DNA from: a bacterium
Lineage (GTDB): Bacteria; 4484-113; JAFGCY01
NCBI GenBank assembly: GCA_016932385.1
Contig: JAFGCY010000011.1
Location: forward strand, 20,267 to 84,266
DNA length: 64,000 bases
Direction: 5' to 3'
Positions 7,646 through 26,944 of this stretch are shown piece by piece. Numbering within the stretch: position 1 is the first letter of the stretch; the number at the start of each line of letters is the position of its first letter. A program made the translations under genes and the position numbers. Below the pieces are notes generated by a model, which was not told where the DNA came from, searched no databases, and saw only the letters and a list, made by a program, of their open reading frames with translations.

Positions 7646-7662
7646 AATTACTGAAGTTAAGC

Positions 7663-12840: not shown

Positions 12841-12900
12841 CCGTAAGAGTCTGTTAGAATTGCCGGGCCCCGTCCCGGGTCCAGGAGTAGCACAACAGCC

Positions 12901-13860
12901 GTGGAATCATCCCTCGTTACGCCATGGTGGTTCTGGGTCGCGTTCATCGCCTTCGTCTTGGTGATGCTGACGCTCGACCTGGGCGTATTCCACAAGCGCG
13001 GCCACACCGTCGGATTCAAGGAATCACTGAGCTGGTGCGGATTCTGGATCCTGCTGGCACTGGCCTTTAATGTCATCGTTTATTTCTGGCACGGAACCCA
13101 GGCCAGCCTGGAGTTTTTCACCGGTTACCTGCTGGAATACTCGCTGTCCATCGACAACATCTTCGTCTTCCTGCTGCTAACAAGCTATTTCAAAGTACCG
13201 CCGCGATACCAGCATCGCGTGCTGTTCTGGGGTATCATCGGCGCGTTGATCCTGCGCGGTCTGTTGATTATAGCCGGCATCGCACTGATCAACCTGTTCC
13301 ACTGGGTGCTCTATGCGTTTGGAGCGGTCCTGATCCTAAGCGGCCTGAAGATGGCCTGCAGCGCCGAAAAGAAGATAGACCCATCCAAGAACCCGGTGTT
13401 GAAGTTCCTCCGGCGGGTAATCCCCCTGAGTGATGATTACGACGAAGACCGATTCTTCATCCGCCGGGCCGGCCGATTGCTGGCCACACCGCTCTTGGTA
13501 GTGCTGATCTTCATCGAGCTGACCGATCTCGTCTTCGCCTTCGATTCCATTCCGGCGATTATCGGGATCACGCGCGATGCCTTCGTTGTCTATACGAGTA
13601 ACGTTTTTGCGATTTTCGGACTGAGAAGTCTGTACTTCGCGCTGGCTAATCTGGTTGGGATGTTCCGCTATCTGCCCTACGGATTGGCGGCCGTACTGAT
13701 ATTCGTTGGCATCAAGATGTGCATCGAGCCTTTTTACAGAGTCGAAGTCCTGGCTTCGCTGACAGTGATTGGCAGTATTCTGTGCGTAGCGATCGTCGCC
13801 TCGCTGATCGCCCGGCGTTACCAGCCGGAAAAGGCCGAATCGGCCGAACAAGAATCCTAA
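12901..13860 (+). CDS. TerC/Alx-family integral membrane protein
   Basis: GTG start. TerC signatures are GYLLEYSLSIDNIFVFLL and ELTDLVFAFDSIPAIIGIT. It has multiple TM helices. Confidence 0.9.
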   Translation: MESSLVTPWWFWVAFIAFVLVMLTLDLGVFHKRGHTVGFKESLSWCGFWILLALAFNVIVYFWHGTQASLEFFTGYLLEYSLSIDNIFVFLLLTSYFKVPPRYQHRVLFWGIIGALILRGLLIIAGIALINLFHWVLYAFGAVLILSGLKMACSAEKKIDPSKNPVLKFLRRVIPLSDDYDEDRFFIRRAGRLLATPLLVVLIFIELTDLVFAFDSIPAIIGITRDAFVVYTSNVFAIFGLRSLYFALANLVGMFRYLPYGLAAVLIFVGIKMCIEPFYRVEVLASLTVIGSILCVAIVASLIARRYQPEKAESAEQES

Positions 13861-13892
13861 AGGACTTGACGCCTGGGTTACAATGCTTAGCG

Positions 13893-14531
13893 ATGACCAA
13901 CACGGAAGCTAAATTGAGAAAGCCGCGCCAGCGGCTTGATCCCAGCGATGAGGTGTTGATCGGCCGACTGGCGGAAGGCGACCAGAGCGCCTTTAACGAG
14001 ATTTTCGACCGCTACCACCGGCAGATTTATAACTTCATCGCCAAACAGGTCAATGACCGCGAGAGCTGCGAGGACCTCACGCAGGAAGTTTTCATGCGCG
14101 TTTATAAAAGCGCGAGCAATTTCGATACTTCCAAGAAATTCACATCCTGGCTGTACAAAATCGCCTTGAACGAGGTCAAGCGCCATTGGAAGCGGACCGG
14201 CGCACGGCAAACCTACAGCCTGAATACCCCGCTGAGCAACGAGGCCGGCGAGGCCGAACGCGCCGACTTTATCGAAGACGCCCGTGAGGTGCCCGAGGAC
14301 TCCACCGAAAGCGAGCTGTTCTCCCGCAACCTGCGGCAGTTGATCGATCAGTTGCCGGACAAACAGCGCACCGTCGTGCTGCTGAAGGTCTATCAGGAGC
14401 TGACCTTCGAAGAGATCGCCGAGATCTGCGAATGCCCCTTGAGCACTGTACTATCACGCATGCGCTACGCCGTGGACAAGCTGCGCCGCTGGCTGGGCGT
14501 GGAGGACGGACAGGCCGAATATGGATTGTAA
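13893..14531 (+). CDS. ECF-type sigma-70 family RNA polymerase sigma factor
   Basis: Start taken at ATG 13893 (MTNTEAKL...). Region 2 is FNEIFDRYHRQIYNFI..DLTQEVFMRVY. Region 4 HTH is RTVVLLKVYQELTFEEIAEICECPLSTVLSRMRYAVDKLR. Confidence 0.9.
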   Translation: MTNTEAKLRKPRQRLDPSDEVLIGRLAEGDQSAFNEIFDRYHRQIYNFIAKQVNDRESCEDLTQEVFMRVYKSASNFDTSKKFTSWLYKIALNEVKRHWKRTGARQTYSLNTPLSNEAGEAERADFIEDAREVPEDSTESELFSRNLRQLIDQLPDKQRTVVLLKVYQELTFEEIAEICECPLSTVLSRMRYAVDKLRRWLGVEDGQAEYGL

Positions 14532-14760
14532 AAAGATTCAGAAACAGATTTTCCGGTTCATCTACGGCGAGTCCGATGAATACGAACTCCGCGCGATCAA
14601 GGCCCACCTGGAAATCTGTAACGCCTGCGAGGCGGAACAGAAAATCATCGAAGAGATCCTGGTGCAGATCAAGTCCGGCGTACCGGACGACCCGGTTCCC
14701 GACGGCTTCAAGGAGCGCGTACTCAGCCAAGTCCAGGCGCTGGCGGAACAGGATTCCTGA
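14521..14760 (+). CDS. Short soluble ZAS-type anti-sigma factor (zf-HC2)
   Basis: It overlaps the sigma gene by 11 nt. The HxxxCxxC motif is HLEICNAC. It is 79 aa with no hydrophobic TM segment. Confidence 0.7.
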   Translation: MDCKKIQKQIFRFIYGESDEYELRAIKAHLEICNACEAEQKIIEEILVQIKSGVPDDPVPDGFKERVLSQVQALAEQDS

Positions 14761-14815
14761 CCGGTTTTCAGAGGGTCAGATGAATTGAGAACGCATCCCA
14801 TTTGCCGGCAAGCTG

Positions 14816-14843
14816 TTGCATTCAAGTAAAATGCCGGTATAAT
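14816..14843 (+). promoter_or_regulatory. Predicted sigma70-type promoter
   Basis: -35 TTGCAT (14816-14821), 16-nt spacer, -10 TATAAT (14838-14843). A 6-bp hairpin GTCGCC/GGCGAC (14849-14866) lies immediately downstream. Confidence 0.45.
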
Positions 14844-14906
14844 AGCGCGTCGCCAAAATGGGCGACAGGAAAAATTTAACTAAAACCACGCGAAGGAGGT
14901 CGGTCG

Positions 14907-14978
14907 ATGAGGAGCATGAAGAACGGGCCAGTAATGACGAGCACCACGGCGGCCGAACTCCCGCGATCTCGAAACTGA
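14907..14978 (+). CDS. Candidate 23-codon upstream ORF / leader peptide (MRSMKNGPVMTSTTAAELPRSRN)
   Basis: Strong Shine-Dalgarno AAGGAGG (14893-14899) lies 7 nt upstream of ATG 14907. It sits downstream of the predicted promoter and 152 nt upstream of the methyltransferase start. It is too short to judge by composition. Confidence 0.3.
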   Translation: MRSMKNGPVMTSTTAAELPRSRN

Positions 14979-15130
14979 TTTCTTAGAGTTCTTCCGCCTT
15001 TAACCAAGGTTTCCCGTCATTCTGAGCACCGGTGGCGTACGGTTCACGCCTGTTCACGCCCAGACCCGGTCAGCCAGCTTCCCCATGCCGACGACGGACA
15101 CACCCTGCAAGCGATTATGTGGAGGATGAA

Positions 15131-15946
15131 ATGGTAGATCACGAGCTAGCTACGGCCAACGGCTACAGCGTTACCGCCCGGTATTACGACGATGTCTATA
15201 CCGAGCAAACCGCTCCGGTCGACCAGCCGTTTTACCTCCATTACGCCGAACAGGCACCGGGTGCCGTGTTGGAGCTGGGTTGCGGTACGGGCCGCGTCAC
15301 ACTGCCGCTGGCCCGGGCCGGCCACCGGATTACCGCGCTGGATCTGGCCACGGACATGCTGGCGATTTTCAAGCGCAAGCTGGCCCAGGAGCCCGCCGAC
15401 GTGCAGGAACGCGTCAGCGTGGTCCGGGGCGACATGGCGGAGTTCGAGCTAGCCGAGCGCTTCGGACTGGTGATCTCGCCGTTCCGCGCCTTCCAGCACC
15501 TGCTGGAGCCGGAGCAGCAGCGCCGGTGCCTGGAGCGGGTGGCCCGGCACTTGCAGCCCGAGGGCCGGTTCGTGTTCAATGCGTTCCAGCCGAACCTGCG
15601 CTACATCGTCAAGGCCCAGGAGTTGGCCGGCACGTTCAAGCAGGTCAACCAGGCCACGTTGGACGACGAGAACCGGATCCTGCGGCGCTATGTCCAGCTG
15701 ACGCCACATCCGGGCTTGCAGCGGCATCAGATCCTGTGGAAATACGAGATCTGCGACCGCTTCGGCAAGGTGGTCGAGACCCAGTTGGAAGAGATGTGGT
15801 TGCGCTGGTTCTACCGCTGGGAGGCGGAGTACCTGCTGGAGCTCAGCGGCCTGGCGATTGTCGAAGCCTACGGCGGCTTCGACAAACGTCCGTTGGACGA
15901 GAACGCCGCCGAGTTGATTTATATCTGCCGGCGCAAGGAAAGCTGA
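15131..15946 (+). CDS. Class I SAM-dependent methyltransferase
   Basis: GGAGG lies 5 nt upstream of ATG 15131. Motif I is VLELGCGTGRVTLPLA, followed by ITALDLATDML, VRGDM and LVISPFRAF. Substrate unknown. Confidence 0.85.
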   Translation: MVDHELATANGYSVTARYYDDVYTEQTAPVDQPFYLHYAEQAPGAVLELGCGTGRVTLPLARAGHRITALDLATDMLAIFKRKLAQEPADVQERVSVVRGDMAEFELAERFGLVISPFRAFQHLLEPEQQRRCLERVARHLQPEGRFVFNAFQPNLRYIVKAQELAGTFKQVNQATLDDENRILRRYVQLTPHPGLQRHQILWKYEICDRFGKVVETQLEEMWLRWFYRWEAEYLLELSGLAIVEAYGGFDKRPLDENAAELIYICRRKES

Positions 15947-16039
15947 CGCCGGCTACGTCAGAAACGTAAACCTGTTGTGATGTCAGATGCCCGTACCCCG
16001 GTGCGAGGCCGGTTCTTCCCTAAGCGGAGGAGGAATACC

Positions 16040-16315
16040 ATGTCAGCCGTACTGGGCAACCAGAAATGCGAAACAATCGGCCTGGCCGTGGCGGAAGAAC
16101 TCGTCGTGGTTCAGTGGCTGAAACACGTGTACCACCAGGCCTCAACAAGTTGGGACCGGTGGCTCTACCCCGACGCGGCGGATAATGCGCGCCGGCGGGG
16201 TCCGTCCGTGATTCCCGACATCGTGGCCGTGGAATTCATGGAGCTGTCGCAGCATGCCGACCTGCGTTGGGTGCTGCTCCTTGAGGACGTCAACACTTTG
16301 ACGGCGCGCGACTGA
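16040..16315 (+). CDS. Hypothetical protein (91 aa)
   Basis: GGAGGAGG Shine-Dalgarno 6 nt upstream of ATG 16040. No recognisable motif. Confidence 0.5.
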   Translation: MSAVLGNQKCETIGLAVAEELVVVQWLKHVYHQASTSWDRWLYPDAADNARRRGPSVIPDIVAVEFMELSQHADLRWVLLLEDVNTLTARD

Positions 16316-16390
16316 TCGGTCCACGCCGTCCTGGCGGCGGACCGGCCTGTGCCTCCGGGCCTGGCCGGCCCGTCAGCCAAGGATGAGGAT

Positions 16391-17368
16391 ATGATGGATG
16401 CACTAAGCGAAACTAAACTGACGGAAGCCGTGATGGATCTGGTGGAGGTTGATGCGAGCGTTGATGCACTGCACTGCCAGGGCGTAACCAAACACTTCTC
16501 GGCCAGCCTGGACAAAAAGGACCGGCCGCCGGCGAAGAACCGGTTGCACGGCCTGTGGCAACGCATCGTGCCGCCCCGCCGCCGCAAGCAGGCGGTGGAC
16601 AACGTCTCGCTGAAGCTGAAGCGCGGTGAGATTTTCGGCGTGGTCGGGCATAACGGCAGCGGCAAGAGCACCCTGATCCGGATGATCAGCACGCTGTTGA
16701 CGCCGGACGCCGGCACGATCAGCGTCTTCGGCTTCGATCCGCAACGCGATCCGTACAAGGTACAGCGCCTGATCAACCGCGTCAGTGTGGATGCCGCGTT
16801 CTTCAAGAAACTCTCGGCTAACGAGAACCTGCTCTACGCCGCCCGGCTGTACGGCGTGGAGGACAAGTACGCCCTTAAACGGGCCGAGGAGATCCTGAAG
16901 CTGCTCGGCCTGGAAGAGGGGCGGCTGACCGACAGCTTGCAGGAGCTCAGCCGCGGCATGCAGCAGAAGGTCGCCGTGGCCCGGGCGCTGTTGACCAGCC
17001 CGGTGCTGCTGCTGTTGGACGAGCCGACGACGGGCCTGGATCCCAAGTCCAAGCGCGACGTGCAGGACTTCATCCTGGAGCTGCAGCGGATCCACGACGC
17101 CACCGTGCTGCTGACCAGCCATGACATGGACGAGGTAGAGCGGCTCTGCGGCCGGATCGCCTTGATGAACGAAGGGCACTTCGTCGCCCGGGGTACGGCG
17201 GAAGAGCTGAAGCAGCGCGTGCTGGAGCGGCGCATTGAGCGGGCCGCCAGCGGCGAAACGGCCGATGCCGACAGGCGCAGCAACGGCACGGGCGAGGTCA
17301 CGATGGAGGACGTCTTCATCGAGCTGACCGGCAGCGAGTGGAAATCCGCCGAGGAGGACGTGGACTGA
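16391..17368 (+). CDS. ABC transporter ATP-binding protein (DrrA-like, ABC-2 type partner)
   Basis: Walker A GHNGSGKST, signature LSRGMQQK, Walker B LLLLDEPTTGLD, H-loop LLTSHD. The start at the ATG at 16391 is preceded by AAGGATGAGGA. Confidence 0.9.
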   Translation: MMDALSETKLTEAVMDLVEVDASVDALHCQGVTKHFSASLDKKDRPPAKNRLHGLWQRIVPPRRRKQAVDNVSLKLKRGEIFGVVGHNGSGKSTLIRMISTLLTPDAGTISVFGFDPQRDPYKVQRLINRVSVDAAFFKKLSANENLLYAARLYGVEDKYALKRAEEILKLLGLEEGRLTDSLQELSRGMQQKVAVARALLTSPVLLLLDEPTTGLDPKSKRDVQDFILELQRIHDATVLLTSHDMDEVERLCGRIALMNEGHFVARGTAEELKQRVLERRIERAASGETADADRRSNGTGEVTMEDVFIELTGSEWKSAEEDVD

Positions 17369-17383
17369 CCGTCCCAGTTGGCT

Positions 17384-17953
17384 ATGCAAGTTAGGGTGAC
17401 CGGAAAACTAGTCAGGCTGCGTCCGTTTCAGGATCTGGAGGAACTCGCCACGCTGACGCAAGTACTGAACACGGAAGACCAGTTCTGGGGCTCGAGTTGG
17501 TGGCCGCTGGCGCAAATGCGGCAAGGCTTTGAGCAACATGCCATGTTGGACGATAGCTGTTGGTTCAGCTTTGCCGCCATCGACCGGCTGGACACTCCGG
17601 AGTTGATCGGCTATGAGGTCATCCAATTACCCAAGCCGGGGCAATTGAGTGCGGAGATCGGCACCGGGATTCTAAAGCAGCACTGGCACAACGGCTTTGG
17701 CCGCGAGGCCAAGCAACTGGCGCTGAAGCTGCTGTTTGAAAATTACGCGTTGGAGTGCATTACCGCCACCACGCTGGTCCACCATCGCCGCGCGATCGCC
17801 GGCCTGGACGCGATCGGCATGCGGCGCGAGGGTTCGATCCGGCGCAGCTTTTTCACCGGCGGTAAGTACGCCGACAAGGTCAAGTACATCATCACGCGCC
17901 AGGAATGGCAGCGAATGCAATCAGAAAACGAATCACGCAGGCCCGAGGCCTGA
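17384..17953 (+). CDS. GNAT N-acetyltransferase, RimJ/RimL-like (array member A1)
   Basis: N-terminus MQVRVTGKLVRLRPF. Acetyl-CoA loop region HWHNGFGREAKQLALKLLFEN. It aligns along its full length with the six other type-A paralogs. Confidence 0.8.
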   Translation: MQVRVTGKLVRLRPFQDLEELATLTQVLNTEDQFWGSSWWPLAQMRQGFEQHAMLDDSCWFSFAAIDRLDTPELIGYEVIQLPKPGQLSAEIGTGILKQHWHNGFGREAKQLALKLLFENYALECITATTLVHHRRAIAGLDAIGMRREGSIRRSFFTGGKYADKVKYIITRQEWQRMQSENESRRPEA

Positions 17954-17970
17954 GCACGGAAGGAGCAACC

Positions 17971-18540
17971 ATGACAACGTCAGAGACCAACAAGCAGCAG
18001 GGCTTCGCCGAGGGCCAGCACGTCGTGCTGCGGCCCGTGCTGGAGGACGACCTGGCCGCGCTGGCCGGGCTGATGGCGGAGAACCCGCTGGAACCGCTGC
18101 CCTGGACCCTGCAGCGGCTGAAGAACAAGTTCGAGGACAAGGACGAGCCGGGCCTGTGGGGCAAGACCGCACGCCACTTCGTGATTGTGCGCCATAACGG
18201 TGAGGTCGTCGGCTTTCTCAAGGAAAGCGACGACTCCAACCGCGGTATGCATTGGAACGAGCTGCACATCAAGGACGGGCTCGCCGACCGCGATGTGCTG
18301 GGCGTGGATACGCTGACGGCGTATCTGGCCTACAAGCAGAAATGGCACAATCCGCTGCGGATCAGCTTCGACGTCCTGCGGCCGGAAACTGAGAAAGCCA
18401 CCTGGATGGTGGAGGCCGGCTTCGAGCTGGAGCTAACGCAGGAGCGCGTGCTGTTCTACCGCGGCCAACCCGAAGCGCGCTGCCTGTACACGTGGTTCAG
18501 CGAGGAGTTGCTTAACGCTCCGGCCTGGTCGGAGGAGTGA
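17971..18540 (+). CDS. Divergent GNAT-fold protein (array member B1)
   Basis: GGAAGGAG Shine-Dalgarno before ATG 17971. It is a paralog of 21377..21988 (PWT.QRL...FEDKD.P.LW....VIR...E.VGF..E). It has a GNAT-like length and a VVLRP N-terminal strand, but I cannot find a canonical (Q/R)xxGx(G/A) motif. Confidence 0.6.
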   Translation: MTTSETNKQQGFAEGQHVVLRPVLEDDLAALAGLMAENPLEPLPWTLQRLKNKFEDKDEPGLWGKTARHFVIVRHNGEVVGFLKESDDSNRGMHWNELHIKDGLADRDVLGVDTLTAYLAYKQKWHNPLRISFDVLRPETEKATWMVEAGFELELTQERVLFYRGQPEARCLYTWFSEELLNAPAWSEE

Positions 18541-18585
18541 TCGCCGGCGCCTGACTTGTACTACCGGCGAAATTGGGAGATTGAC

Positions 18586-19158
18586 ATGATTACAACTTGG
18601 ACTGGAGAACGCGTTCGCTTGCGGCCATTCGCCAACGCGAACGAGCGTTGCGACCAGTATGTCGAGATGCGCAGCAAGCCCAATCAGTTCTGGGGTGCCT
18701 GGTGGTCGGCACGGCAGGAAAACAAGAAGAGCTTCGAGGAATCCGGCCTGCTATCCGCCGATAAGTACGGGTGTTTTGCAGTGGAACGGTTGGACACCGG
18801 CGAGTTGATCGGCTTCGAGGAACACGGATTCGTCGAGTCCGGTACCTCCGCCTGGATCGGCACGTTCATCCAACCGGAGCACTGGCACCGGGGCTTCGGC
18901 ATCGAAGCCAAGCAGCTAGCCTATTGCTACCTGTTTGAGAACTTCCCGCTGACGTCCATCGACTCGGGTACGATCGACAACCACGTGCGCGCCAAGCGCG
19001 GATTGCTCGAAAGCGGCATGCATTTCGAGGGCCGGATCCGGCGCTACCACTACATCGAAGGCAAGTATCACGATCTGGTGTTCTACCGGATCTTCCGCGA
19101 GGAGTGGGAGCAGTTGCCGATCCGGCGGATCGCGAAGCGAGGTTCGGCATGCATGTGA
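18586..19158 (+). CDS. GNAT N-acetyltransferase, RimJ/RimL-like (A2)
   Basis: MITTWTGERVRLRPF; HWHRGFGIEAKQLAYCYLFENFPL; tail REEWEQLPIRRIAKRG. Confidence 0.8.
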   Translation: MITTWTGERVRLRPFANANERCDQYVEMRSKPNQFWGAWWSARQENKKSFEESGLLSADKYGCFAVERLDTGELIGFEEHGFVESGTSAWIGTFIQPEHWHRGFGIEAKQLAYCYLFENFPLTSIDSGTIDNHVRAKRGLLESGMHFEGRIRRYHYIEGKYHDLVFYRIFREEWEQLPIRRIAKRGSACM

Positions 19159-19715
19159 TCTATACCGGCGAGCGCGTCCGACTCAGGCCATTCGCCTCGG
19201 CGGAGGAGTTCATCAAGCTCGATGACAACTTCATGGCGGTGCCGAACCCGTTTTGGGGTCCCGACTGGCGGTCCCATGCGAAACGGACGGCCGAGTTCAC
19301 TGGCAACGGCTTGATCGATCCGCTGGCGTACTCCGCCTTCGCCGTCGAGCGGCTGGACACGGGTGAGTTGATCGGGATCGAGGAGTGTGGCGATGTACAC
19401 GCGACGAAGCTGTACACCTGGATCGGGACATTCATCCTGGCGGACCATCGGCGCCAGGGCTTCGGCATCGAGGCCAAGCAGCTGATGATGTGCCACCTGT
19501 TCGAAAACCTGCCGCTGTCCTCGATCCTGGCCGTGACGATGTCGAACCACGCCCGAGCCCTGGCCGGCTTGCAGGTCTGCGGGATGCGCCACATTGGTTA
19601 CAAGCGGCGCGTCCGGCAATGCGACGGGAAAGTGCTGGATGAGGTGATGTTTCAGATCCTGCGCGAGGAGTGGGAACAGCTGCCGATCCGGCGGATTGTG
19701 AAGCGAGGTGCCTGA
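19149..19715 (+). CDS. GNAT N-acetyltransferase, RimJ/RimL-like (A3)
   Basis: MHVIYTGERVRLRPF; HRRQGFGIEAKQLMMCHLFENLPL; tail REEWEQLPIRRIVKRG. Its start overlaps the A2 stop by 10 nt. Confidence 0.8.
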   Translation: MHVIYTGERVRLRPFASAEEFIKLDDNFMAVPNPFWGPDWRSHAKRTAEFTGNGLIDPLAYSAFAVERLDTGELIGIEECGDVHATKLYTWIGTFILADHRRQGFGIEAKQLMMCHLFENLPLSSILAVTMSNHARALAGLQVCGMRHIGYKRRVRQCDGKVLDEVMFQILREEWEQLPIRRIVKRGA

Positions 19716-20272
19716 TGCAAGTTAGCTGGACAGGTGCACGAATACGGCTGAGGCCGTTTGCGGACTTCGCGGAGTATGCGCCGGCGTTTACGGCGACCTT
19801 CGGCGAATCGACGGAGTTCTGGGGCCACCAGCGCTGCCCGATCGATAAGGAGCGCAAGCGATTCGAAGAAACCGGCGCGGTTGATGATTTCCGCGGCCAG
19901 CTCGCAGTGGAGCGACGGGACGATGGCCTGGTACTGGGCTCGATGAGCTACGTGCTCTACCGCAACGGCCTGGGGGCCAACATCGGCACCATTATCCGGA
20001 TTCCCTACCGGGCCCAGGGTTACGGAGTTGAAGGCAAGCGGCTGTTGATCAGCTACCTGTACCAGACGCGCCCGTTGGCGCGGATCGAGGCGATTACCTT
20101 GACCCATCACCGCGCGGCTCGGCGCAGCGTGGAGCTGGCCGGCATGCGCCGGGAGTATGTTCGGCGACGTTGCACCTTCAGCCAGGGCCGCTGGGGCAGT
20201 TGGGTGGCTTATGTGATCTTTCGCGAAGAATGGGAGCAATGGCCGGATCGGCCCGACGCACATAGGGCATGA
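19715..20272 (+). CDS. GNAT N-acetyltransferase, RimJ/RimL-like (A4)
   Basis: MQVSWTGARIRLRPF; YRAQGYGVEGKRLLISYLY. There is a TGATG stop/start overlap with A3. Confidence 0.8.
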   Translation: MQVSWTGARIRLRPFADFAEYAPAFTATFGESTEFWGHQRCPIDKERKRFEETGAVDDFRGQLAVERRDDGLVLGSMSYVLYRNGLGANIGTIIRIPYRAQGYGVEGKRLLISYLYQTRPLARIEAITLTHHRAARRSVELAGMRREYVRRRCTFSQGRWGSWVAYVIFREEWEQWPDRPDAHRA

Positions 20273-21384
20273 CAAAAATGAAGAAACTGAACACACTATC
20301 TCGCCTCGGACAACTGCGCCGTCTGCGCGGACTGCTGCGGCCAGCCTTGGCGGCATATGGGCTCACCGACGCCTTGTGCAAGCTAGTACAGCACGGCGAG
20401 AACACGACCTACCGCGTCGATTCAGCTAAAGGTGATATCGGCTGCCGTGGTGTATATGTGCCGGGCCGATACCTGGCACGGATCCACCGGCCGGAATACC
20501 ATACGCCCGCCGAGATCCGCTCCGAATTGACCTGGCTTACGGCACTGCGCGCCGCTACCGGCTTGGACGTTCCCGAGCCGGTGACCGACCGGAACGGCCA
20601 GTTGGTCATCGAGGCGACCGCGCCGGACGTACCGGAACCGCGGCCGGTCAGTCTGCTGCGCTGGATGAGCGGAACGTTCCGCCACAAGCGGCTGAACGCG
20701 AAGCACATCACGCAACTGGGCCGGCTGACGGCCTGCCTGCACGAACATGCGGCAACCTGGAACCCGCCCGCCGGCTTTACGCGCGGCAAATGGGACTGGG
20801 ACGGCTTGTTCGGCAAGAACTTCGGCCTGGGCCTAAGCGAGCAGGAGTTGTGGAGCCTAGTACCGTCGAATGCACGTGGAGTGTTTTACGAAGCAGCGCA
20901 ACACATCGGCCAGACCATGGCGACGCTGGGACGCGGCGCGAACGTCTTCGGGCTGATCCACGCCGACCTGCATATCGGCAATGTGCTGTTCACGCCCGAC
21001 AACGCGCGGCCCATCGACTTCGACGACTGTGGGTACGGTTACTGGCTCTACGACCTTGCCGTCATCGTCGACAACTTGCGCAACCTGGAGTTGGGCCGGG
21101 AGTATGAAGCCGCATTGATTGCCGGCTACCGCCAGATCCGGCCGCTGCCCGTGGGATATGACGAGCATCGGTTGGATTTCGTCGCGGCCCGCAGCATTAC
21201 GTTGACACTGTGGGTGTGCGGCATGGCACGAATCAACACGAAATTCGCGGCCTGGATCCCGAACGCCATTGAGGACACACGGCCCGTGATCGCCGAATAC
21301 CTGTCCCGGTTCGGCAATGGGACCGGCCGCGGGCTACCAAGAACTGTCAATCAGCGAAAGCGAGGAGACAACAACCATGACTGA
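20269..21384 (+). CDS. APH/CotS-type phosphotransferase (kinase-fold) protein
   Basis: ATGA overlap with A4. Catalytic loop LIHADLHIGNVLF and metal-binding IDFDDCGYG. It is 371 aa. The N-lobe has the NTTYRV pattern typical of aminoglycoside/choline/homoserine-kinase-II-like phosphotransferases. Confidence 0.8.
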   Translation: MTKMKKLNTLSRLGQLRRLRGLLRPALAAYGLTDALCKLVQHGENTTYRVDSAKGDIGCRGVYVPGRYLARIHRPEYHTPAEIRSELTWLTALRAATGLDVPEPVTDRNGQLVIEATAPDVPEPRPVSLLRWMSGTFRHKRLNAKHITQLGRLTACLHEHAATWNPPAGFTRGKWDWDGLFGKNFGLGLSEQELWSLVPSNARGVFYEAAQHIGQTMATLGRGANVFGLIHADLHIGNVLFTPDNARPIDFDDCGYGYWLYDLAVIVDNLRNLELGREYEAALIAGYRQIRPLPVGYDEHRLDFVAARSITLTLWVCGMARINTKFAAWIPNAIEDTRPVIAEYLSRFGNGTGRGLPRTVNQRKRGDNNHD

Positions 21385-21988
21385 GCAGCAGCAGGAAGCA
21401 ACAAGCGCATTGAACAACGAGATCAAGCAGCTGACCGCGGCCCAGTGCATGGCCGCCGGCGAATTCATCCGCCTGCGCGGCGTGCAGGAATACGACCTGG
21501 CCCGGCTGGCGCGGCTACTGGCCGAAGCGCCCAGTTCTCTTGCACCAATGCCTTGGACCGAGCAGCGCCTGCGCGTGCAGTTCGAGGACAAGGATAAGCC
21601 GAACTTGTGGCACGAAAAAAAGAAAACTTACGCTGTGATCCGCCTGGCGAACGATGAGCTGGTTGGCTTCATCACCGAGCACAAGGATGATCACGGCGTG
21701 TTCGTGTTCTTCGATATTGACCAGCATTGCGCGGACCGAAACGAACTGGGCCGCGATGTCCTGCGGGTCTATCGCGATCTGAAGATGGACTGGTCTAAGC
21801 TCCACCGCCTGGAAATCTGCATTCTCGATGTGGAGCAGGACAAGGCGCAATGGCTGGCGGCCACCGGCTGGCAAATGTCCGCGCAGATCCCGCAGATGTA
21901 TTTCCATTTGGGCCGGCCCGCCGACCTGCAGATCTGGGACTGGGTCGCGCCCTGGGCCGAACAACTGGGGGCCGGCGATGGCACGTAA
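21377..21988 (+). CDS. Divergent GNAT-fold protein (B2)
   Basis: ATG 21377 overlaps the kinase stop by 8 nt, and GAGGAG lies upstream. It is a paralog of B1 (see 17971..18540). Confidence 0.6.
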   Translation: MTEQQQEATSALNNEIKQLTAAQCMAAGEFIRLRGVQEYDLARLARLLAEAPSSLAPMPWTEQRLRVQFEDKDKPNLWHEKKKTYAVIRLANDELVGFITEHKDDHGVFVFFDIDQHCADRNELGRDVLRVYRDLKMDWSKLHRLEICILDVEQDKAQWLAATGWQMSAQIPQMYFHLGRPADLQIWDWVAPWAEQLGAGDGT

Positions 21989-22163
21989 GTCGAACCGGCG
22001 CCTGGCGCGGATCAAGCTCTCGGCGCTGCAGGCTTTGCTGGGCTCACCGAACGAGCTGCACAAGGCGCACCGGCTCAATGCCAGCGGTACGGGCGCGCAT
22101 CGCAACAAGAAGCGTTATCAACGCCGGGCCAAGCACCGGCGGGACTATGGAGCAGAATTATGA
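21978..22163 (+). CDS. 61-aa highly basic mini-protein, ArfA-like (tentative)
   Basis: The in-frame ATG at 21978 overlaps the B2 stop by 11 nt. Its own stop overlaps the A5 start (ATGA). It has 17 K/R versus 3 D/E. The segment IKLSALQALLGSPNELHKAHRLNASGTGAHRNKKRYQRRAKH resembles my recollection of E. coli ArfA ([35 protein letters not shown]). Confidence 0.4.
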   Translation: MARKSNRRLARIKLSALQALLGSPNELHKAHRLNASGTGAHRNKKRYQRRAKHRRDYGAEL

Positions 22164-22726
22164 ATACGGTTTACACTGGAGAGCAAGTACGCCTGCGTCC
22201 GTTCAAAGACGCCGCCGAATACCAGTGGCTGATGGCCCACGAGGCACTGGAGCCCAATGCGCACTGGGGCATCTGGTATTACCCCCAGGCTGAGGCCCGT
22301 AAGGACTTCGAAAAGAACGGCCTGCTGCTGACCGACGGCTACAGCGCATTTGCCGTGGAGCACCTCGCCAGCGGCGAGTGCATCGGCTACGAGGAATACG
22401 GCGGCTATAAGCCCGGCCGGCCCTCGGACTGGGTGGGCACGTTCATCCGCAAGGAGTTCCGTCGCCAGGGCTTGGGCGTGGAGGCCAAGCGGTTAAACCT
22501 CTGCCACCTGTTCGAGAGCTTCCCGCTCAACGTGGTCTACGCCGACACCACCGCGACGCACAAGCCAGCCCAACGCGGCTTGGAGTTGTGCGGGATGAAA
22601 CGCTGCGGAGTACGGCGCAAGGCGCACTATTACAAGGGCCGCTTCGTCGATATTCCGCAGTACTACATCCTGCGTAGCGAGTGGGAGCAGCTGGCGTACC
22701 GCCATAAGGTCAAGCGAGGCTTGTGA
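22160..22726 (+). CDS. GNAT N-acetyltransferase, RimJ/RimL-like (A5)
   Basis: MNTVYTGEQVRLRPF; FRRQGLGVEAKRLNLCHLFESFPL; tail SEWEQLAYRHKVKRGL. Confidence 0.8.
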   Translation: MNTVYTGEQVRLRPFKDAAEYQWLMAHEALEPNAHWGIWYYPQAEARKDFEKNGLLLTDGYSAFAVEHLASGECIGYEEYGGYKPGRPSDWVGTFIRKEFRRQGLGVEAKRLNLCHLFESFPLNVVYADTTATHKPAQRGLELCGMKRCGVRRKAHYYKGRFVDIPQYYILRSEWEQLAYRHKVKRGL

Positions 22727-23292
22727 TGCGGACCGTGTTGACCGGCGAGCGCGTTCGGCTGCGACCGTGGGCGAGCGGCGAAGAGCTGTACGACTTCAGC
22801 CGGCGCCACAACACCCGGCCGAATGAGCACCTCGGCCCGACCTGGTATCCGCTCGGTGTCGAATGCCGGCTGTTTGCCGATAACGGCATGGTGAACAGCC
22901 ATGGCCTAAGCGCTTTCGCAATCGAGCTCATGGACAAATGCCAACTGATTGGTTTTGAGGCGGTGACTTTCAGAGACCCACTGTGCATGGATGCCGAAGT
23001 GGGCACGTTCATCCTGGAGCCATATCGCCGTCAGGGCCTGGGCATCGAATCCAAGCAGCTGATGCTGCAGCACCTGTTCGGCAATTATCAGCTGGACCGC
23101 GTCGGCGCCTGGACGCTGGCGACGCACACCATGGCCCGCCGCGGACTGGAACGATGCGGATTCACCTTGGAGGGCCGCCTGCGCCGGGCGTACTACAGCC
23201 GCGGCCGGTACACCGACCGCGTGTTCTACGTCATCTGGCGTGAGGACTGGAAGCAGCTCGCTCAAGTGAACGAACCAGGGAACCAACCATGA
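22726..23292 (+). CDS. GNAT N-acetyltransferase, RimJ/RimL-like (A6)
   Basis: ATG 22726 is preferred over GTG 22723. It gives MRTVLTGERVRLRPW, in register with the paralogs, and the same AAGCGAGG-N6-ATG geometry. Motif: YRRQGLGIESKQLMLQHLFGN. Confidence 0.8.
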   Translation: MRTVLTGERVRLRPWASGEELYDFSRRHNTRPNEHLGPTWYPLGVECRLFADNGMVNSHGLSAFAIELMDKCQLIGFEAVTFRDPLCMDAEVGTFILEPYRRQGLGIESKQLMLQHLFGNYQLDRVGAWTLATHTMARRGLERCGFTLEGRLRRAYYSRGRYTDRVFYVIWREDWKQLAQVNEPGNQP

Positions 23293-23852
23293 TTACGACT
23301 TATACAGGAGAACGGGTCCGGCTGCGGCCGTGGCGCGATTTCGCGGAGTACAGCTCCGTGATCGACCGCGATTACGCCCAGCCGGATCCGTTCCGTGGAC
23401 CGCGCTGGTGGCCGGTGCTGGCGCGCGAGCCGGACTTCGACCGAAACGGCGAAATCGGGCCGGAGGCGTATTCGCAGCTGGCGATCGAGGAGTTGGCCAG
23501 CGGGCAGGCCGTCGGCATCACGGGCCACGGTGCGCTGAAGCCCGGCGCGCTGGCGGTGGACTTCGGCACGTACATCCTGCCGGACTGCCGCTACCGCGGC
23601 TACGGCGTGGAGGCCAAGCAGCTGGCGCTGTGCCGGTTGTTTGAAAACTACCCGCTGGAGGCTGTCCGGGCCAACACCACAGCCCCGCACGGGCGGGCGC
23701 GGCGCAGCCTGGAGCTGTGCGGCATGCAGCAATACGGCCGGCTGCGGCGAGTCGGGATCGCGGACGGCCGCTATTACGACGAAGTGCAGTACGAGATCTA
23801 CCGGCCGGACTGGGAGCTGCTGCCCATCCGGCAGCGAGTTAAGCGAGGTTAA
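23289..23852 (+). CDS. GNAT N-acetyltransferase, RimJ/RimL-like (A7)
   Basis: ATGA overlap with A6. MITTYTGERVRLRPW; CRYRGYGVEAKQLALCRLFENYPL; tail PDWELLPIRQRVKRG. Confidence 0.8.
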   Translation: MITTYTGERVRLRPWRDFAEYSSVIDRDYAQPDPFRGPRWWPVLAREPDFDRNGEIGPEAYSQLAIEELASGQAVGITGHGALKPGALAVDFGTYILPDCRYRGYGVEAKQLALCRLFENYPLEAVRANTTAPHGRARRSLELCGMQQYGRLRRVGIADGRYYDEVQYEIYRPDWELLPIRQRVKRG

Positions 23853-23872
23853 GCAGCAAGTGGAGTTTTATC

Positions 23873-25129
23873 ATGAAGATCGTTAACGAGAAAATCAGGA
23901 AAGTCGTTGCCGGCAACGGGCGCGAGGCCCGCATCTGGGTCGAGCGTCCAGAGCTGGTGGAGGAGCAGGCGCTTAAACAAATCGAGTCAATGCTCGCAAC
24001 GCCCAACCTGGTGGAGCACATCGCGGTGATGCCGGACGTGCACTGGGGCATGGGCGCGACGATCGGGGCCGTGATGGCGCTCGACGACGCGATCATCCCC
24101 AACTGCGTCGGCGTCGACATCGGCTGCGGGATGGCCTGCCACCCGCTGGGGTTGAAATACGAGGGCGAGTTGAAGACGCGCGACCACTGGCGCCGTTGGC
24201 TGGGCCAGGTGCAGCGCTCCATCCCGACGGGCTTCAACAGCCACCAGCCGCATCCGGAGCTGCTTCAAGCGCAGAAGCTGGAGGCACGGGCGGAGCGCGG
24301 CGACCAGGCCGGCATCGAGAACCTGCGCTGTACCGAGTATATCGCCACCACGAAGCGATTCGGCAACGTTGCCGAGATGGTGCTCTGCCAGCAAGGTACG
24401 ATGGGCGGCGGCAACCATTTCCTGGAGATCCAGCGCGACGAAAGCGATAACCTCTGGCTGATGGTGCACTCGGGCAGCCGCCACGTCGGCTACCAGATCG
24501 CCGGGCATTACGCCAAGCTGGCACAGGCCGTCAACCAGCGGCTGGGCCAGCCGGCGGCACCGCACCTGAACTGGCTGTCGCTCTCCACTCCCGAGGGACG
24601 GGCGTATCTCAACGATATGCAGTGGGCGGTGGATTACGCCCTGCTCAACCGCAAAGCGATGCTCAGGCGCGCCCTGGGCGTGATGGGGATCGCCTTCAGC
24701 GAGGACCTGCTGATCAACATCCCGCACAACTACGCGGCGGTGGAGGAGCACTTCGGCAAGCAAGTGGTGGTGCACCGCAAGGGTGCTACCAGCGCGCGCG
24801 TCGACGAGTTGGGGATCATTCCGGGCAGCATGGGCACGCCGAGTTACATCGTGCGCGGCCTGGGCAACTCGGAGAGCTACCAGTCCTGCAGCCACGGCGC
24901 GGGCCGCACGATGGGCCGCAAGGCGGCCAAGAAAGCGCTGAACACCAGCATGTTCGCCGAGGCACTGGCGGGTACGTTCTCCACGGCGAGCGGCAGCTAC
25001 CTGGACGAGGCACCGCAGGCTTACAAGGCCATCGACCTGGTGATCAGCGCACAGGACGAACTGGTGACCGTGGTGCATAAACTGACGCCGGTGATCACCC
25101 TGAAGGACGGCGCCGGCGGAGTGGATTAG
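23873..25129 (+). CDS. rtcB: RNA 3'-phosphate ligase RtcB
   Basis: All hallmark blocks are present: MPDVHWGMGATIG, VGVDIGCGM, GGGNHFLEIQ, HSGSRHVG, HNYA, HRKGAT, IPGSMGTPSY, SCSHGAGR. It is 418 aa, with GGAG 7 nt upstream of the ATG. Confidence 0.92.
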   Translation: MKIVNEKIRKVVAGNGREARIWVERPELVEEQALKQIESMLATPNLVEHIAVMPDVHWGMGATIGAVMALDDAIIPNCVGVDIGCGMACHPLGLKYEGELKTRDHWRRWLGQVQRSIPTGFNSHQPHPELLQAQKLEARAERGDQAGIENLRCTEYIATTKRFGNVAEMVLCQQGTMGGGNHFLEIQRDESDNLWLMVHSGSRHVGYQIAGHYAKLAQAVNQRLGQPAAPHLNWLSLSTPEGRAYLNDMQWAVDYALLNRKAMLRRALGVMGIAFSEDLLINIPHNYAAVEEHFGKQVVVHRKGATSARVDELGIIPGSMGTPSYIVRGLGNSESYQSCSHGAGRTMGRKAAKKALNTSMFAEALAGTFSTASGSYLDEAPQAYKAIDLVISAQDELVTVVHKLTPVITLKDGAGGVD

Positions 25130-25222
25130 CGAGACAGACCATGCATGGACAATCAACCGCGAGATTTTGTCAGCCAGTCAGTTCGGCGCCAAGGCCGCAT
25201 GAATCGGGCTGCCTGCGCGCGC

Positions 25223-25402
25223 CTAACGCTTCGAATCCAAGTCCTCGATCTCGGCAACCAAACCGTCGATTTCGTTTTCCCAGGATTCGATCTGGCGCTG
25301 CATATCCGGATCAGTTGAGTCAGCGGAATCGATCAAGGCTTCGAGCCGGTCAATCTTCTGATGCAGCCTGGAGATTTCCAGATCCAGGTCAAGGTCACAC
25401 AT
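25223..25402 (-). CDS. Small acidic coiled-coil protein (59 aa, hypothetical)
   Basis: This is the C-terminal portion of tracked ORF 25223..26095, taken from the internal ATG at 25402, with GGGGA 6 nt upstream. The sequence has a heptad-like pattern (EISRLHQKIDRLEALIDS...IESWENEIDGLVAEIEDL), with 18 D/E of 59 residues. The rest of the tracked ORF is antisense to the ABC-2 permease. Confidence 0.45.
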   Translation of the reverse strand: MCDLDLDLEISRLHQKIDRLEALIDSADSTDPDMQRQIESWENEIDGLVAEIEDLDSKR

Positions 25403-25425
25403 TGCACATCCCCTGGAAGTAATTG

Positions 25426-25455
25426 TCTCAACATTGTACCAAAGCAATGTTGAGA
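25426..25455. promoter_or_regulatory. Perfect 11-bp inverted repeat (operator- or hairpin-like)
   Basis: TCTCAACATTG (25426-25436), an 8-nt spacer, then CAATGTTGAGA (25445-25455). It lies in the divergent gap between the small minus-strand ORF and the ABC-2 permease. Confidence 0.5.
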
Positions 25456-25504
25456 ACGCCCTTGGGCAATTTCCTGCCTGATGAGGATCTATTGGAGCTA
25501 TCAG

Positions 25505-26371
25505 ATGTCCGTAAATGAAAACCGAATACGGGGCGGAACTCGCGGAGGCGGCCGGCTGGGCCGCGAACTCAGTGCGATCCGCGCCTTCATCCTGCGCGAT
25601 CTCGACCTGACCAAACGCTACCTCGGCTGGGACATCGTCTGGCTGGTCTACAACCTGATCAACGCGGTGATTATCGGCCTGATCGGCCTGTCGAGCGGCG
25701 CTGCACCGGAGCACGTCCCGGGCGGCCAGCCTTATGTTTTCTACCTGCTGATCGGTGCCGTGATGTGGAACTACCTGGCCGTGCTGTTCATCATCATCGC
25801 CGAGACGGTGGCCTGGGAGCGCTGGGAAGGCACGCTGGAGTACACCTTCATGGCGCCGATCCACCGCCTGACGCACCTGTTCGGCGTCTGCGCCTACGCC
25901 ACGATCTACGGTGTAATCCGCACAATCCTGATGTTGGGCATCCTGGTGCTGGCCTTCCATCTGGATCTCAGCCAAGCCAACCTGCTCTCGGCGCTGGTGG
26001 TGCTGATCATCGGCAGCTTCGCAATGGTCGGCCTGGGCCTGATCGCCGCGGTGGCGCCGCTGTTGAGCCCCGAAAAGGGTGCCCAGGCCACGCACATCCT
26101 GCTGGCGGTCACGCTCTTAGTCAGCGGCGTGTACTACCCGATCAGCGTGCTGCCCAAGTGGTTACAGCCGGCGGCGTATGTCGCGCCGGCCTATTGGGCC
26201 CTGGTCGCCGAGCGCAAGGCGTTCCTCGGCGGCGTACCGCTGACGCAACTCGGCCCCGAGCTGTTAGGCCTGGTGGTCAGCGGGCTGGTCTTTATTCCGT
26301 TGGGTTATGCGATCTTCGCCTGGGGCGAGCGCTATGCCAAGCGCGTCGGCCTGCTGAAGCGCAGCGGGTAA
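25505..26371 (+). CDS. ABC-2 type transporter permease
   Basis: Start at ATG 25505 (TGGAG upstream; ATG 25481 is an alternative). It has six hydrophobic helices. The N-terminal cytoplasmic RAFILRDLDLTKRY segment is typical of ABC-2/DrrB-like permeases. Confidence 0.8.
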   Translation: MSVNENRIRGGTRGGGRLGRELSAIRAFILRDLDLTKRYLGWDIVWLVYNLINAVIIGLIGLSSGAAPEHVPGGQPYVFYLLIGAVMWNYLAVLFIIIAETVAWERWEGTLEYTFMAPIHRLTHLFGVCAYATIYGVIRTILMLGILVLAFHLDLSQANLLSALVVLIIGSFAMVGLGLIAAVAPLLSPEKGAQATHILLAVTLLVSGVYYPISVLPKWLQPAAYVAPAYWALVAERKAFLGGVPLTQLGPELLGLVVSGLVFIPLGYAIFAWGERYAKRVGLLKRSG

Positions 26372-26407: not shown

Positions 26408-26944
26408 ATGCTGGCCATGCTTCCCGACAACATCTTTTTGGGCTGTCTGATCGTGTTCGCCCTGCGCGTCACCGACGTCTCGATGGGCACCCTGCGCACG
26501 GTATACATCCTGCAGGGCCGGCGGCTGTTGGCCGCCTGCATCGGCTTCTTCGAGGTGCTGATCTGGATCTTCGTGGTCAGCTCGGTCGTCGGTGCGATCA
26601 CGGACTGGATGCTGATGGTGGCCTATGCGCTGGGCTTCGCCACCGGCACCTGGGTCGGGCTGTCGCTGGAGCGCCGCTTCGCGATCGGCTTTACGCAGCT
26701 CAGGGTGATCAGCGACGACAACGGCGAGAACATCGCCAAGGCGCTGTGGGCGGAGGACTTCGGCGCAACGGTAGTCCGCGGACACGGGAAGAACGGCGCG
26801 GTGGATCTGGTGTTCAGCATCGTCCCCCGCCGCTGGCTAAAGCGCTGCGTCAACCTGGCAACAAAGGTCGACAGCGACTGCTTCATCAGCGTCTCCGACA
26901 GCCGCTACCTGTTCCGCGGGTACATGGGCCAGGGGAAGAAGTAA
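26408..26944 (+). CDS. UPF0316/DUF2179-family membrane protein
   Basis: N-terminal TM helices with the pattern LRVTDVSMGTLRTVYILQGRR. A soluble C-terminal domain follows (RVISDDNGENIAKALWAEDFGATVVRGHGKNG). Confidence 0.65.
   Translation: MLAMLPDNIFLGCLIVFALRVTDVSMGTLRTVYILQGRRLLAACIGFFEVLIWIFVVSSVVGAITDWMLMVAYALGFATGTWVGLSLERRFAIGFTQLRVISDDNGENIAKALWAEDFGATVVRGHGKNGAVDLVFSIVPRRWLKRCVNLATKVDSDCFISVSDSRYLFRGYMGQGKK

Follow-up and report, generated by a model that had tools for sequence, protein, structure and literature searches.

The question raised by a 64,000-nucleotide stretch of bacterial DNA (contig JAFGCY010000011.1 of assembly GCA_016932385.1; the whole stretch is called the window here) is whether a block of genes at positions 14816–26371 is an inherited unit or an accident of neighbourhood, and what such a unit could do. 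In this block, an array of acetyltransferase-like (GNAT) genes, a kinase gene, a gene for a very small protein and an rtcB gene lie between the ATPase and permease genes of an ATP-binding cassette (ABC) transporter, and an earlier note, made from the DNA letters, had proposed that they form a multi-layer island protecting and repairing the translation apparatus. Comparison with related loci showed that the block is a genuine, evolutionarily maintained unit and not an accidental adjacency. What is new is the architecture; all of the parts come from known families, and the logic proposed for them has precedents. The literature on RtcB with GNATs or in operons yielded no description of this architecture, only an Anabaena regulon and comparative-genomics surveys.

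Related loci were gathered from homologue look-ups and from a scan of 185,579 species-representative genomes, and every open reading frame (ORF) in them was classified with hidden Markov models (HMMs) built from the window proteins. About 15 distinct related loci were found, all of them from metagenome-assembled genomes named ‘UBP7’ or ‘Planctomycetales bacterium’ or from metagenomes, and the recurrence of the architecture in about 15 independent loci is more than chance would give. With MT for a methyltransferase, u91 for a 91-aa protein, ABC for the ATPase, A and B for the two kinds of GNAT-like protein, KIN for the kinase, mini for the small protein and perm for the permease, the window reads MT-u91-ABC-A-B-A-A-A-KIN-B-mini-A-A-A-RtcB-perm. 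The layouts closest to it are MT-u91-ABC-A-B-A-B-mini-A-A-RtcB-perm (L001) and MT-u91-ABC-A-B-A-B-A-B-A-A-A-B-mini-A-A-RtcB-perm (L002), and shorter ones are MT-ABC-B-A-RtcB-perm (L017) and ABC-A-A-B-A-RtcB-perm (L018). L006 is a decayed copy in which B, A and RtcB lie between a remnant of the ATPase gene and one of the permease gene. Loci L008 and L010–L014 have MT, ABC and B followed by five to 12 A genes and the permease (with one A before B in L013), L015 and L016 have MT-ABC-B-A-A-B-A, and an RtcB-less JGI contig, for which no DNA was at hand, has MT, an 83-aa ORF, ABC, a 63-aa ORF and B-A-B-A-A-perm.

The universal core comprises a promoter, a leader ORF, a C-rich spacer, MT, a DrrA-like ATPase, B, one to 12 A genes and a DrrB-like permease. 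In this core the A/B array lies between the ATPase and the permease, and the ‘split transporter’ that the earlier note had seen around the block is a hallmark of the family: one to 17 inserted genes separate the two transporter genes, and the split is conserved family-wide. No permease was detectable in L015 and L016; where the permease would be expected, L015 has an RVT_1 reverse transcriptase resembling those of retrons or group II introns (13817–15139). In L006 (8794–12167) and the near-identical L007, the ATPase and permease are reduced to C-terminal fragments, and in L006 the MT region has been replaced by an N6_N4 DNA methylase (restriction-modification) cassette, with B, A and RtcB intact.

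Based on the ORF listing and inspection of start sites, 13 tightly packed plus-strand genes extend in the window from the ABC ATPase (16391) to the RtcB stop (25129). Four of the 12 junctions among them are gaps of 15, 17, 45 and 20 nt and the other eight are overlaps of 10, 1, 4, 8, 11, 4, 1 and 4 nt, in exact agreement with the eight overlaps and the 45-nt upper limit that had been read from the letters. The picture of the 3′ end needed correction, as the gap between RtcB and the permease is 351 nt. This gap was rejected as a conserved element because that of L001 is equally long without a shared ORF and that of L002 is 98 nt; a minus-strand ORF for an acidic, coiled-coil-looking protein of 59 aa (MCDLDLDLEISRLHQKIDRLEALIDSADSTDPDMQRQIESWENEIDGLVAEIEDLDSKR), located within it at 25223–25402, has no conserved counterpart in the L001 gap. 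A scan for intrinsic terminators and extra promoters inside the block yielded no more than shuffled sequence did.

The array is built mainly from seven plus-strand A genes: A1 (17384–17953, RimJ/RimL/SpeG-type), A2 (18586–19158), A3 (19149–19715), A4 (19715–20272), A5 (22160–22726), A6 (22726–23292) and A7 (23289–23852). All seven products matched PF13302 at 33–47 bits against a gathering cut-off of 25.4, which bears out their description as RimJ/RimL-like GNATs; the other Pfam families anticipated for the block (PF01636, PF01139, PF00005 and PF01061/PF12698) were all matched as well. The paralogs are 33–52% identical to each other (mean 40%; the earlier estimate was about 35–45%), and their orthologues in other genomes are 57–64% identical and keep their positions. 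Orthologues are thus closer than paralogs, which supports the earlier view of old, maintained duplications. A1 is the only A orthogroup common to both clades and occurs in every locus; the remaining A groups expanded within single clades and kept their order thereafter, and orthologues of A5–A7 stand in the same order in L001 and L002. Array content varies even between close relatives, and the order of A and B is not the same in a relative that is 85% identical. The array evolves by birth and death, a pattern typical of genes facing the environment.

Across 83 A sequences, the G103-x-G105-x-E-A-K cofactor loop is (nearly) invariant and ten other positions are invariant, and the variation is concentrated at residues 21–61, 77–91 and 150–166, segments that we take, from general knowledge of GNAT structures, to form the acceptor site. 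A search of 5.8 billion proteins gave only about 110 A clusters, and all of them belong to this lineage. Among solved structures, the A profile comes closest to TTHA1799 (entered in the PDB as a ribosomal-protein-alanine acetyltransferase), the PacT family (8gxf/8gxk/8gxj, PA3270), YdaF, Mycobacterium smegmatis RimJ and SpeG, with scores of 45–52 bits for the Rim/PacT-type relatives and 31–37 bits for the SpeG-type small-molecule enzymes; RimL (1s7l) and MccE were not among the PDB matches of this profile at E ≤ 1e-3. The A proteins have His/Ala where the CoA-binding helix of YdaF has Asn/Ser. A type II GNAT toxin–antitoxin system (TacAT, PacTA) was considered and rejected: no ribbon-helix-helix (RHH) or Xre/helix-turn-helix partner was found among the operon genes, and PADLOC gave no match for A or B.

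The two remaining GNAT-like genes encode B1 (17971–18540) and B2 (21377–21988), the latter of the B subtype that also precedes the mini gene in L001 and L002. Neither protein has a Pfam or NCBIfam match, even at permissive thresholds. In a PDB search, a profile of ten B sequences matched the GNAT structure 3shp (E = 9e-6), and the AlphaFold2 model of B1, made with 30 homologues, reached a predicted local distance difference test (pLDDT) score of 89.5. The top Foldseek matches of this model are all GNATs (3shp, 9iy3, AAC(6′)-Im, SpeG and RimJ; E from 1e-10 to 1e-12), and a lasso-peptide acetyltransferase is among the top structural matches. On the profile match and the predicted structure, B1 and B2 are GNAT-fold proteins. 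The B proteins lack the acetyl-CoA glycine loop (Q/R-x-x-G-x-G/A or GxG) and have an invariant acidic D-R-x-x-L-G-x-D instead; therefore, B is probably not a second catalytic subtype, and for the two divergent GNATs of the earlier note the fold is confirmed and a catalytic role is doubtful. B may be a non-catalytic or differently liganded partner. The B family amounts to about 36 clusters among the 5.8 billion proteins.

The RtcB RNA ligase gene (23873–25129, +) has intact motifs: the protein matched PF01139 at 347 bits, and its alignment with the Thermus thermophilus and Pyrococcus horikoshii RtcB proteins showed that the metal and His-GMP motifs are kept, with MPDVHWG, GVDIGCG, GGGNHF, HSGSR, HNY and SCSHGAGR aligning to the T. 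thermophilus protein. A look-up of the window's own RtcB returned no record. It was found in six loci (the window, L001, L002, L017, L018 and L006), always between the last A gene and the permease, and is absent from the other clade (L008, L010–L016). In both the ABC tree and the MT tree, the loci with RtcB group together as one clade or grade, and the branching of RtcB itself is congruent with these trees; together with the fixed slot, this points to a single acquisition followed by vertical retention. The proposed RNA religation layer is therefore upheld as an intact ligase co-inherited with the operon in one clade. Assignment to the PrfH-linked RtcB2 proteins was rejected (TIGR03073, 139 bits against a cut-off of 271.8), and no release-factor-like gene (prfH) was found in any locus. 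RtcA, RtcR, archease and Ro/Y-RNA are not present in the block, and a search of the window with Rfam at its gathering threshold and with ARAGORN revealed no RNA partner (structured RNA, tRNA or Y-RNA) for RtcB.

Three further genes are less widely shared. The APH-fold kinase (20269–21384, +) matched PF01636 at 88 bits, and the solved structures nearest to it are 6ef6 (E = 1e-40), entered in the PDB as an aminoglycoside phosphotransferase, and the amicoumacin kinase 6sui (E = 4e-11). Its best NCBIfam model was homoserine kinase, at 57 bits against a cut-off of 271, and no resistance equivalog was matched. The kinase HMM had no match in any other related locus for which DNA was available, so that among the loci compared the kinase is found in the window only. 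The antibiotic-type kinship suggested by the earlier note would fit the solved relatives.

The mini gene (21978–22163, +) encodes a basic protein of 61 aa and the u91 gene (16040–16315, +) one of 91 aa; neither protein has a Pfam or NCBIfam match, even at permissive thresholds. The two families were compared across loci with DNA, the 63-aa and 83-aa ORFs at comparable positions of the JGI contig being left aside, and both genes were detected in three loci (the window, L001 and L002), at the same operon position in each. Consequently, both were rejected as a universal substrate or precursor. The mini-protein has the conserved core HRLxASGTGxHRNxKRYxRxxKHRxDY, and its gene differs at 11–14 synonymous codons, a sign of purifying selection and consistent with a real coding gene; one relative was found among 1.84 billion representatives and no more in two very large protein searches. 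Its earlier identification as ArfA-like was rejected. PF03889 and ArfA chains gave no match at E ≤ 10, the only protein that a profile of four mini-proteins matched among all PDB chains (E ≤ 10) was an unrelated capsid protein, and the ALLxxP...GxG resemblance to ArfA is present in the window's mini-protein and lost in L001 and L002. With this identity the ribosome rescue layer loses its support. One guess is that the mini-protein is a basic RNA-binding partner of its neighbours. The u91 family has a conserved C-terminus, ..DI(I/V)AVEF.E......LW....EDV..LTAR, whose last ten residues resemble, by eye only, the C-terminus of the ABC ATPase (MEDVFIELTG). In L001, two extra tiny ORFs lie between the 90-aa gene and the ATPase (7409–7727); the one of 36 aa ends in ...HEDITSLTARD, the C-terminal motif of the u91 family, which suggests a truncated paralogue.

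The enzyme at the head of the operon is a class I S-adenosylmethionine (SAM) methyltransferase of the amine N-methyltransferase group (15131–15946, +; Pfam Methyltransf_25), found in nearly all loci. Its closest solved relative is CorZ (9SOT; E = 1e-36, full length), the N-terminal methyltransferase of myxarylin, a peptide made on the ribosome and modified after translation (RiPP), followed by MtfA, CcbJ, TylM1/DesVI and CypM, all of which methylate amines. The best NCBIfam model was the daptide methyltransferase (MTase), at 136 bits against a cut-off of 175 and covering the Rossmann half only. Daptide clusters also carry a decarboxylase, an aminotransferase and a Thr-ending precursor; such a cluster was rejected on the subthreshold MTase score and on the absence of the partner enzymes. 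The ATPase (16391–17368, +; PF00005) scored best with TIGR01188 drrA (237 bits against a cut-off of 312) and the permease (25505–26371, +, alternative start 25481; PF01061/PF12698) with TIGR01247 drrB (59 bits against 223). As both models are below their cut-offs, the pump, which would fill the efflux layer of the original proposal, is best termed ‘DrrAB-like’ and not a member of the DrrAB daunorubicin-type family. Judged by the relatives of the A proteins and of MT, both universal enzyme types act on amino groups, and their genes sit between those of a drug-type exporter.

The operon is preceded by a leader region of conserved layout. In the window, a sigma-70-type promoter was read directly, with the -35 element TTGCAT (14816–14821), a 16-nt spacer and the -10 element TATAAT (14838–14843); it was missed by a generic promoter scanner because the -35 element matches at three of six positions only, and 14816, the coordinate at which the earlier note began the block, is its first base. 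Upstream of the MT gene, CTTGCC/CTTGAC-N17-GGGTATAAT is present in all 12 of the 12 loci holding that region, and in the same number (12/12) AGGAGG is followed after 7–10 nt by a start codon and an ORF of 23–27 codons. The corresponding elements of the window are a Shine-Dalgarno (SD) sequence, AAGGAGG, at 14893–14899 and a 23-codon leader ORF, MRSMKNGPVMTSTTAAELPRSRN, at 14907–14978, which was absent from the earlier account and is conserved. Between its stop and the MT start lies a C-rich, G-poor spacer of 152 nt (14979–15130; family range about 150–220 nt), by base composition a candidate Rho-loading region. Over the 100 nt after the leader stop, C minus G was +9 to +20 in 10 of 10 distinct loci, against -2.9 ± 7.9 for 21 same-strand spacers between other genes. 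A terminator scan detected no intrinsic terminator in the spacer, and Rfam gave no match over the leader at E ≤ 1.

In the RtcB-less clade, leader codons 5–19 (RKPLDGKRIRTGHTG) are invariant in peptide sequence despite two to four synonymous changes, which indicates selection on the peptide. The last four residues follow [RC]-F-[RFC]-[YFHS] across clades. When the window is compared with L002, the nucleotides of the 3′ half of the ORF prove conserved, and all differences there are non-synonymous. An R-x-R ‘macrolide arrest’ motif, found in most leader ORFs, was not used, as chance is expected (estimated, not calculated) to give it in more than half of such Arg/Lys-rich peptides. The transcript of the window would begin with a 5′-proximal stem-loop (14849–14866, +; GTCGCC-AAAAT-GGGCGAC, read directly), and different but equivalent hairpins occupy the same place in the L001, L008 and L017 leaders; mRNA stabilisation is one possible function. 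Taken as sequence features, the conserved leader ORF and the C-rich spacer would fit induction through the ribosome.

The reading that we favour, tentatively and with somewhat less than even confidence, is that of a translation-stress-induced, leader-controlled operon that caps toxic amines by N-acetylation and N-methylation and exports them, with RtcB repair added in one clade. A ribosome would pause on the leader ORF when the ribosome has a small molecule bound or when usable aminoacyl-tRNA is short, and the paused ribosome would shield the C-rich spacer from Rho, by the logic of tnaC and speFL, so that the operon is transcribed. The A enzymes, possibly with B as a shared non-catalytic partner, would N-acetylate primary amines of varied toxic compounds (aminoacyl-nucleotide, aminoglycoside, peptide or polyamine-type molecules are candidates), MT would N-methylate amines, and the DrrAB-like pump would export the products. 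The kinase, in this genome only, would phosphorylate an antibiotic-like substrate, and RtcB would reseal tRNA or rRNA broken in the same stress. Besides the anatomy, three points support this reading: the array evolves by birth and death, the kinase has antibiotic kinases as relatives, and the Anabaena TrcR regulon offers a precedent. That regulon is de-repressed under antibiotic-induced translational stress; deletion of trcR raises the expression of rtcB, of two GNAT genes, of an ABC ATPase and of a GNAT-plus-exporter operon, the last of which exports the toxic amino acid BMAA (PMC10272220). Of the translation protection and repair island first proposed, the unit itself, the diversification, the efflux and the repair are supported, the ribosome rescue is not, and the kinase belongs to this genome alone; the regulatory leader and a possible RiPP reading had been missed. 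The proposed linkage in related genomes holds for the GNAT array and the pump in about 15 loci and for RtcB in one clade, and among the loci examined it does not hold for the kinase.

Several observations weigh against the favoured reading. Beyond the anatomy of the operon, its mechanism is what we infer, and Rho-dependent control of the spacer is suggested by base composition only. Minimum free energy folding of five leaders gave no common attenuator hairpin, only the 5′-terminal stem-loop, and no RNA structure connecting the leader ORF to the MT start came out of it. None of the A, B and kinase proteins matched an equivalog for resistance or defence in NCBIfam or PADLOC; the closest relatives of MT, judged by similarity, are biosynthetic tailoring enzymes, not resistance enzymes; and PacT, a toxin reported to acetylate aminoacyl-tRNA, is among the solved relatives of A. 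The ‘translation protection’ theme may fit only a sub-clade, since neither RtcB nor the kinase occurs throughout the family. Finally, the leader ORF, with its conserved N-terminal part and variable C-terminus of four to five residues, also looks like a RiPP precursor.

This last resemblance leads to an alternative that we consider unlikely, a RiPP-like cluster in which the 23–27-codon ORF would be the precursor, made of a conserved leader and a core of four to five residues rich in aromatic residues, Cys and Arg. The CorZ-like MT would methylate the new N-terminus after removal of the leader, one or more GNATs would acylate that N-terminus or confer self-immunity, and the DrrAB-like pump would export the product. 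The kinship of MT to CorZ, with matches to CypM, MtfA and the daptide MTase model, argues for such a cluster, as do the strong promoter and SD that the small ORF has for itself just upstream of the enzymes, the 19 invariant N-terminal residues and variable last four to five residues of this ORF in the RtcB-less clade, and the ‘LP’ followed by four to five variable residues in three RtcB-clade loci. A peptidase of the S9 (prolyl-oligopeptidase) family two genes 3′ of the permease in L002 and the lasso-peptide acetyltransferase among the structural matches of B point the same way. However, no class-defining enzyme (P450, radical SAM, YcaO, LanB/C, ATP-grasp or dedicated protease) occurs in any locus, up to 12 paralogous GNATs would make no sense as tailoring of so short a core, RtcB would have no role, and the consistent C-rich spacer of 150–220 nt between ORF and MT would be left unexplained. 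Moreover, the nucleotide conservation of the 3′ half of the leader ORF between the window and L002, with non-synonymous differences, points to a constraint on RNA or DNA. The solved relatives of the A profile (TTHA1799, the PacT family, YdaF and M. smegmatis RimJ) raise another alternative, quite unlikely in our estimate and already put forward in the earlier note as a programmed modification module: under stress the operon would be induced to modify the translation machinery of the cell itself. In such a module the A proteins would be Rim-like protein N-alpha-acetyltransferases or PacT-like aminoacyl-tRNA acetyltransferases with different targets, B a regulatory or inhibitory partner, and RtcB active on the same RNAs. 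PacT has been reported to arrest translation by acetylating aminoacyl-tRNAs (PMC9561280), the minimal loci L017 and L006 keep exactly one B, one A and RtcB, and the Phe, Arg, Cys, Tyr and His codons at the end of the leader ORF could sense tRNA status. The relatives are weakly similar, however, at 45–52 bits with the SpeG type close behind at 31–37 bits; an antitoxin-type DNA-binding partner (RHH or Xre) is lacking, an A copy number of one to 12 is too variable for housekeeping targets, and constant nesting in a drug-type exporter with an amine N-methyltransferase would remain unaccounted for.

It is also improbable, to our mind, that RtcB, the mini-protein, u91 and the kinase are all unrelated passengers inserted into a permissive, recombination-prone array, the GNAT/ABC/MT operon itself being real. 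The occurrence of the kinase in the window only, the lack of RtcB in the entire L008/L010–L016 clade and the restriction of the mini and u91 genes to three loci would be expected of passengers, and the array does gain and lose genes and tolerates insertion and decay, as with the restriction-modification methylase in L006 and the reverse transcriptase in L015. On the other side, RtcB occupies the same slot in six loci with a tree congruent with the ABC and MT trees, the decayed L006 keeps RtcB, B and A intact where the ATPase and permease are only fragments, the kinase and mini genes overlap the stop and start codons of their neighbours, and the mini gene is under purifying selection. Passenger status is therefore plausible for the kinase and unlikely for RtcB, in view of its fixed position and congruent phylogeny. 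A more specific proposal, which taken with all of its parts we regard as very unlikely, is that the operon is a dedicated surveillance-and-protection system for aminoacyl-tRNA supply. The end of the leader ORF, with its Phe, Arg, Cys, Tyr, His and Asn codons, may sense depleted or damaged aminoacyl-tRNAs; each A with B may N-acetylate one amino-acid class of aminoacyl-adenylate-type synthetase inhibitors or toxic analogues; MT and the DrrAB-like pump may dispose of the products; and RtcB, with the mini-protein as an RNA-binding cofactor, may reseal tRNAs cut by anticodon nucleases. If true, this would be a per-amino-acid ‘specificity battery’ without a described counterpart.

Should the favoured reading of a leader-controlled amine-capping and export operon be true, the locus would be a compact model of broad-spectrum chemical defence in bacteria, in which one acetyltransferase scaffold has been duplicated with its cofactor site fixed and its acceptor site diversified, and all A copies are tied to a single ribosome-based sensor and a single pump. 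Further gains would be candidate arrest or leader peptides of a new family, a pseudo-enzyme partner of GNATs (B), a natural linkage of genes for small-molecule detoxification with RNA repair by RtcB, and up to a dozen new acetyltransferase specificities per genome in a phylum without cultured members. If the leader ORF were instead a RiPP precursor, a new minimal family of peptide natural products would be gained.

The surroundings of the operon were also examined. The region is flanked by genes for two large secreted or lipoprotein-like proteins in inverted orientation (10211–12415, +, and 26963–28360, −), whose C-terminal ends are clearly similar (...ICNLQLAFTQPGEYRLSFQEREVVSRTYY...WYDISN... 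and ...LCNFRLRFPNPGTYSIGFQEREFDNGTYY...WYDISN...). Directly upstream, at 12439–14760 (+), are a glyoxalase/VOC gene, TerC, an extracytoplasmic function (ECF) sigma factor of the SigW/RpoE-like kind and a zf-HC2 anti-sigma factor, and the glyoxalase-ECF-anti-sigma neighbourhood is kept beside the operon in L002, L006, L008 and L017; the 420 nt upstream of the MT gene showed no promoter motif of the ECF type. A DUF5698/DUF2179 membrane protein gene (26408–26944, +) lies immediately 3′ of the permease, as it does after the permease in L002, and YitT/DUF2179 genes lie nearby in L001; it could be a loosely associated neighbour. PADLOC gave only generic methyltransferase and ABC-ATPase matches for the block proteins, and for this reason a known anti-phage defence system was rejected.

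Among known systems, the TrcR regulon of Anabaena (PMC10272220) resembles the present operon in combining rtcB with GNATs, an ABC ATPase and a GNAT-plus-exporter operon; the Anabaena genes are scattered, repressor-controlled and without a tandem GNAT array, whereas here one operon stands behind a leader ORF. As in PrfH-RtcB2 and RtcR-RtcBA, an intact RtcB ligase is part of a stress-type operon, but none of PrfH, RtcA, RtcR, archease and Ro/Y-RNA belongs to the block. The small-RiPP clusters of biarylitides and myxarylin share a CorZ-like MT, a very short ORF just upstream and an ABC exporter with it, and differ from it in that a P450 or core-modifying enzyme is missing here and a GNAT array, RtcB and a long C-rich spacer are present. 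Like the DrrAB exporters, the pump is a two-gene ABC-2 type transporter with drrA and drrB as best models; unlike them, it has subthreshold scores and its two genes are split by inserted genes. The A proteins share the fold and cofactor loop of the RimJ/RimL/SpeG GNATs, including MccE/RimL and PacT, but constitute a subfamily of their own, in arrays of up to 12 and with a partner that lacks the cofactor loop. In tnaC and speFL, stalling of the ribosome on the leader blocks Rho loading. The present leader has the order of tnaC-tnaA and speFL-speF-potE, namely a promoter, then a short ORF whose SD is strong, and 150–260 nt of non-coding spacer before the first structural gene (in Escherichia coli speFL, a 34-codon ORF and a 257-nt spacer before speF), and like them it has a C-rich, G-poor spacer and a conserved peptide sequence; its basic ‘R-I-R-T-G-H’ and Phe-rich C-terminus loosely recall HIRRTTH...FDFHFFNAR of SpeFL. 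In contrast to tnaC and speFL, there is no detectable sequence homology, Rho dependence and ligand sensing are only proposed here, and the genes that would be controlled encode acetyltransferases, a methyltransferase and an exporter in place of catabolic enzymes or a decarboxylase.

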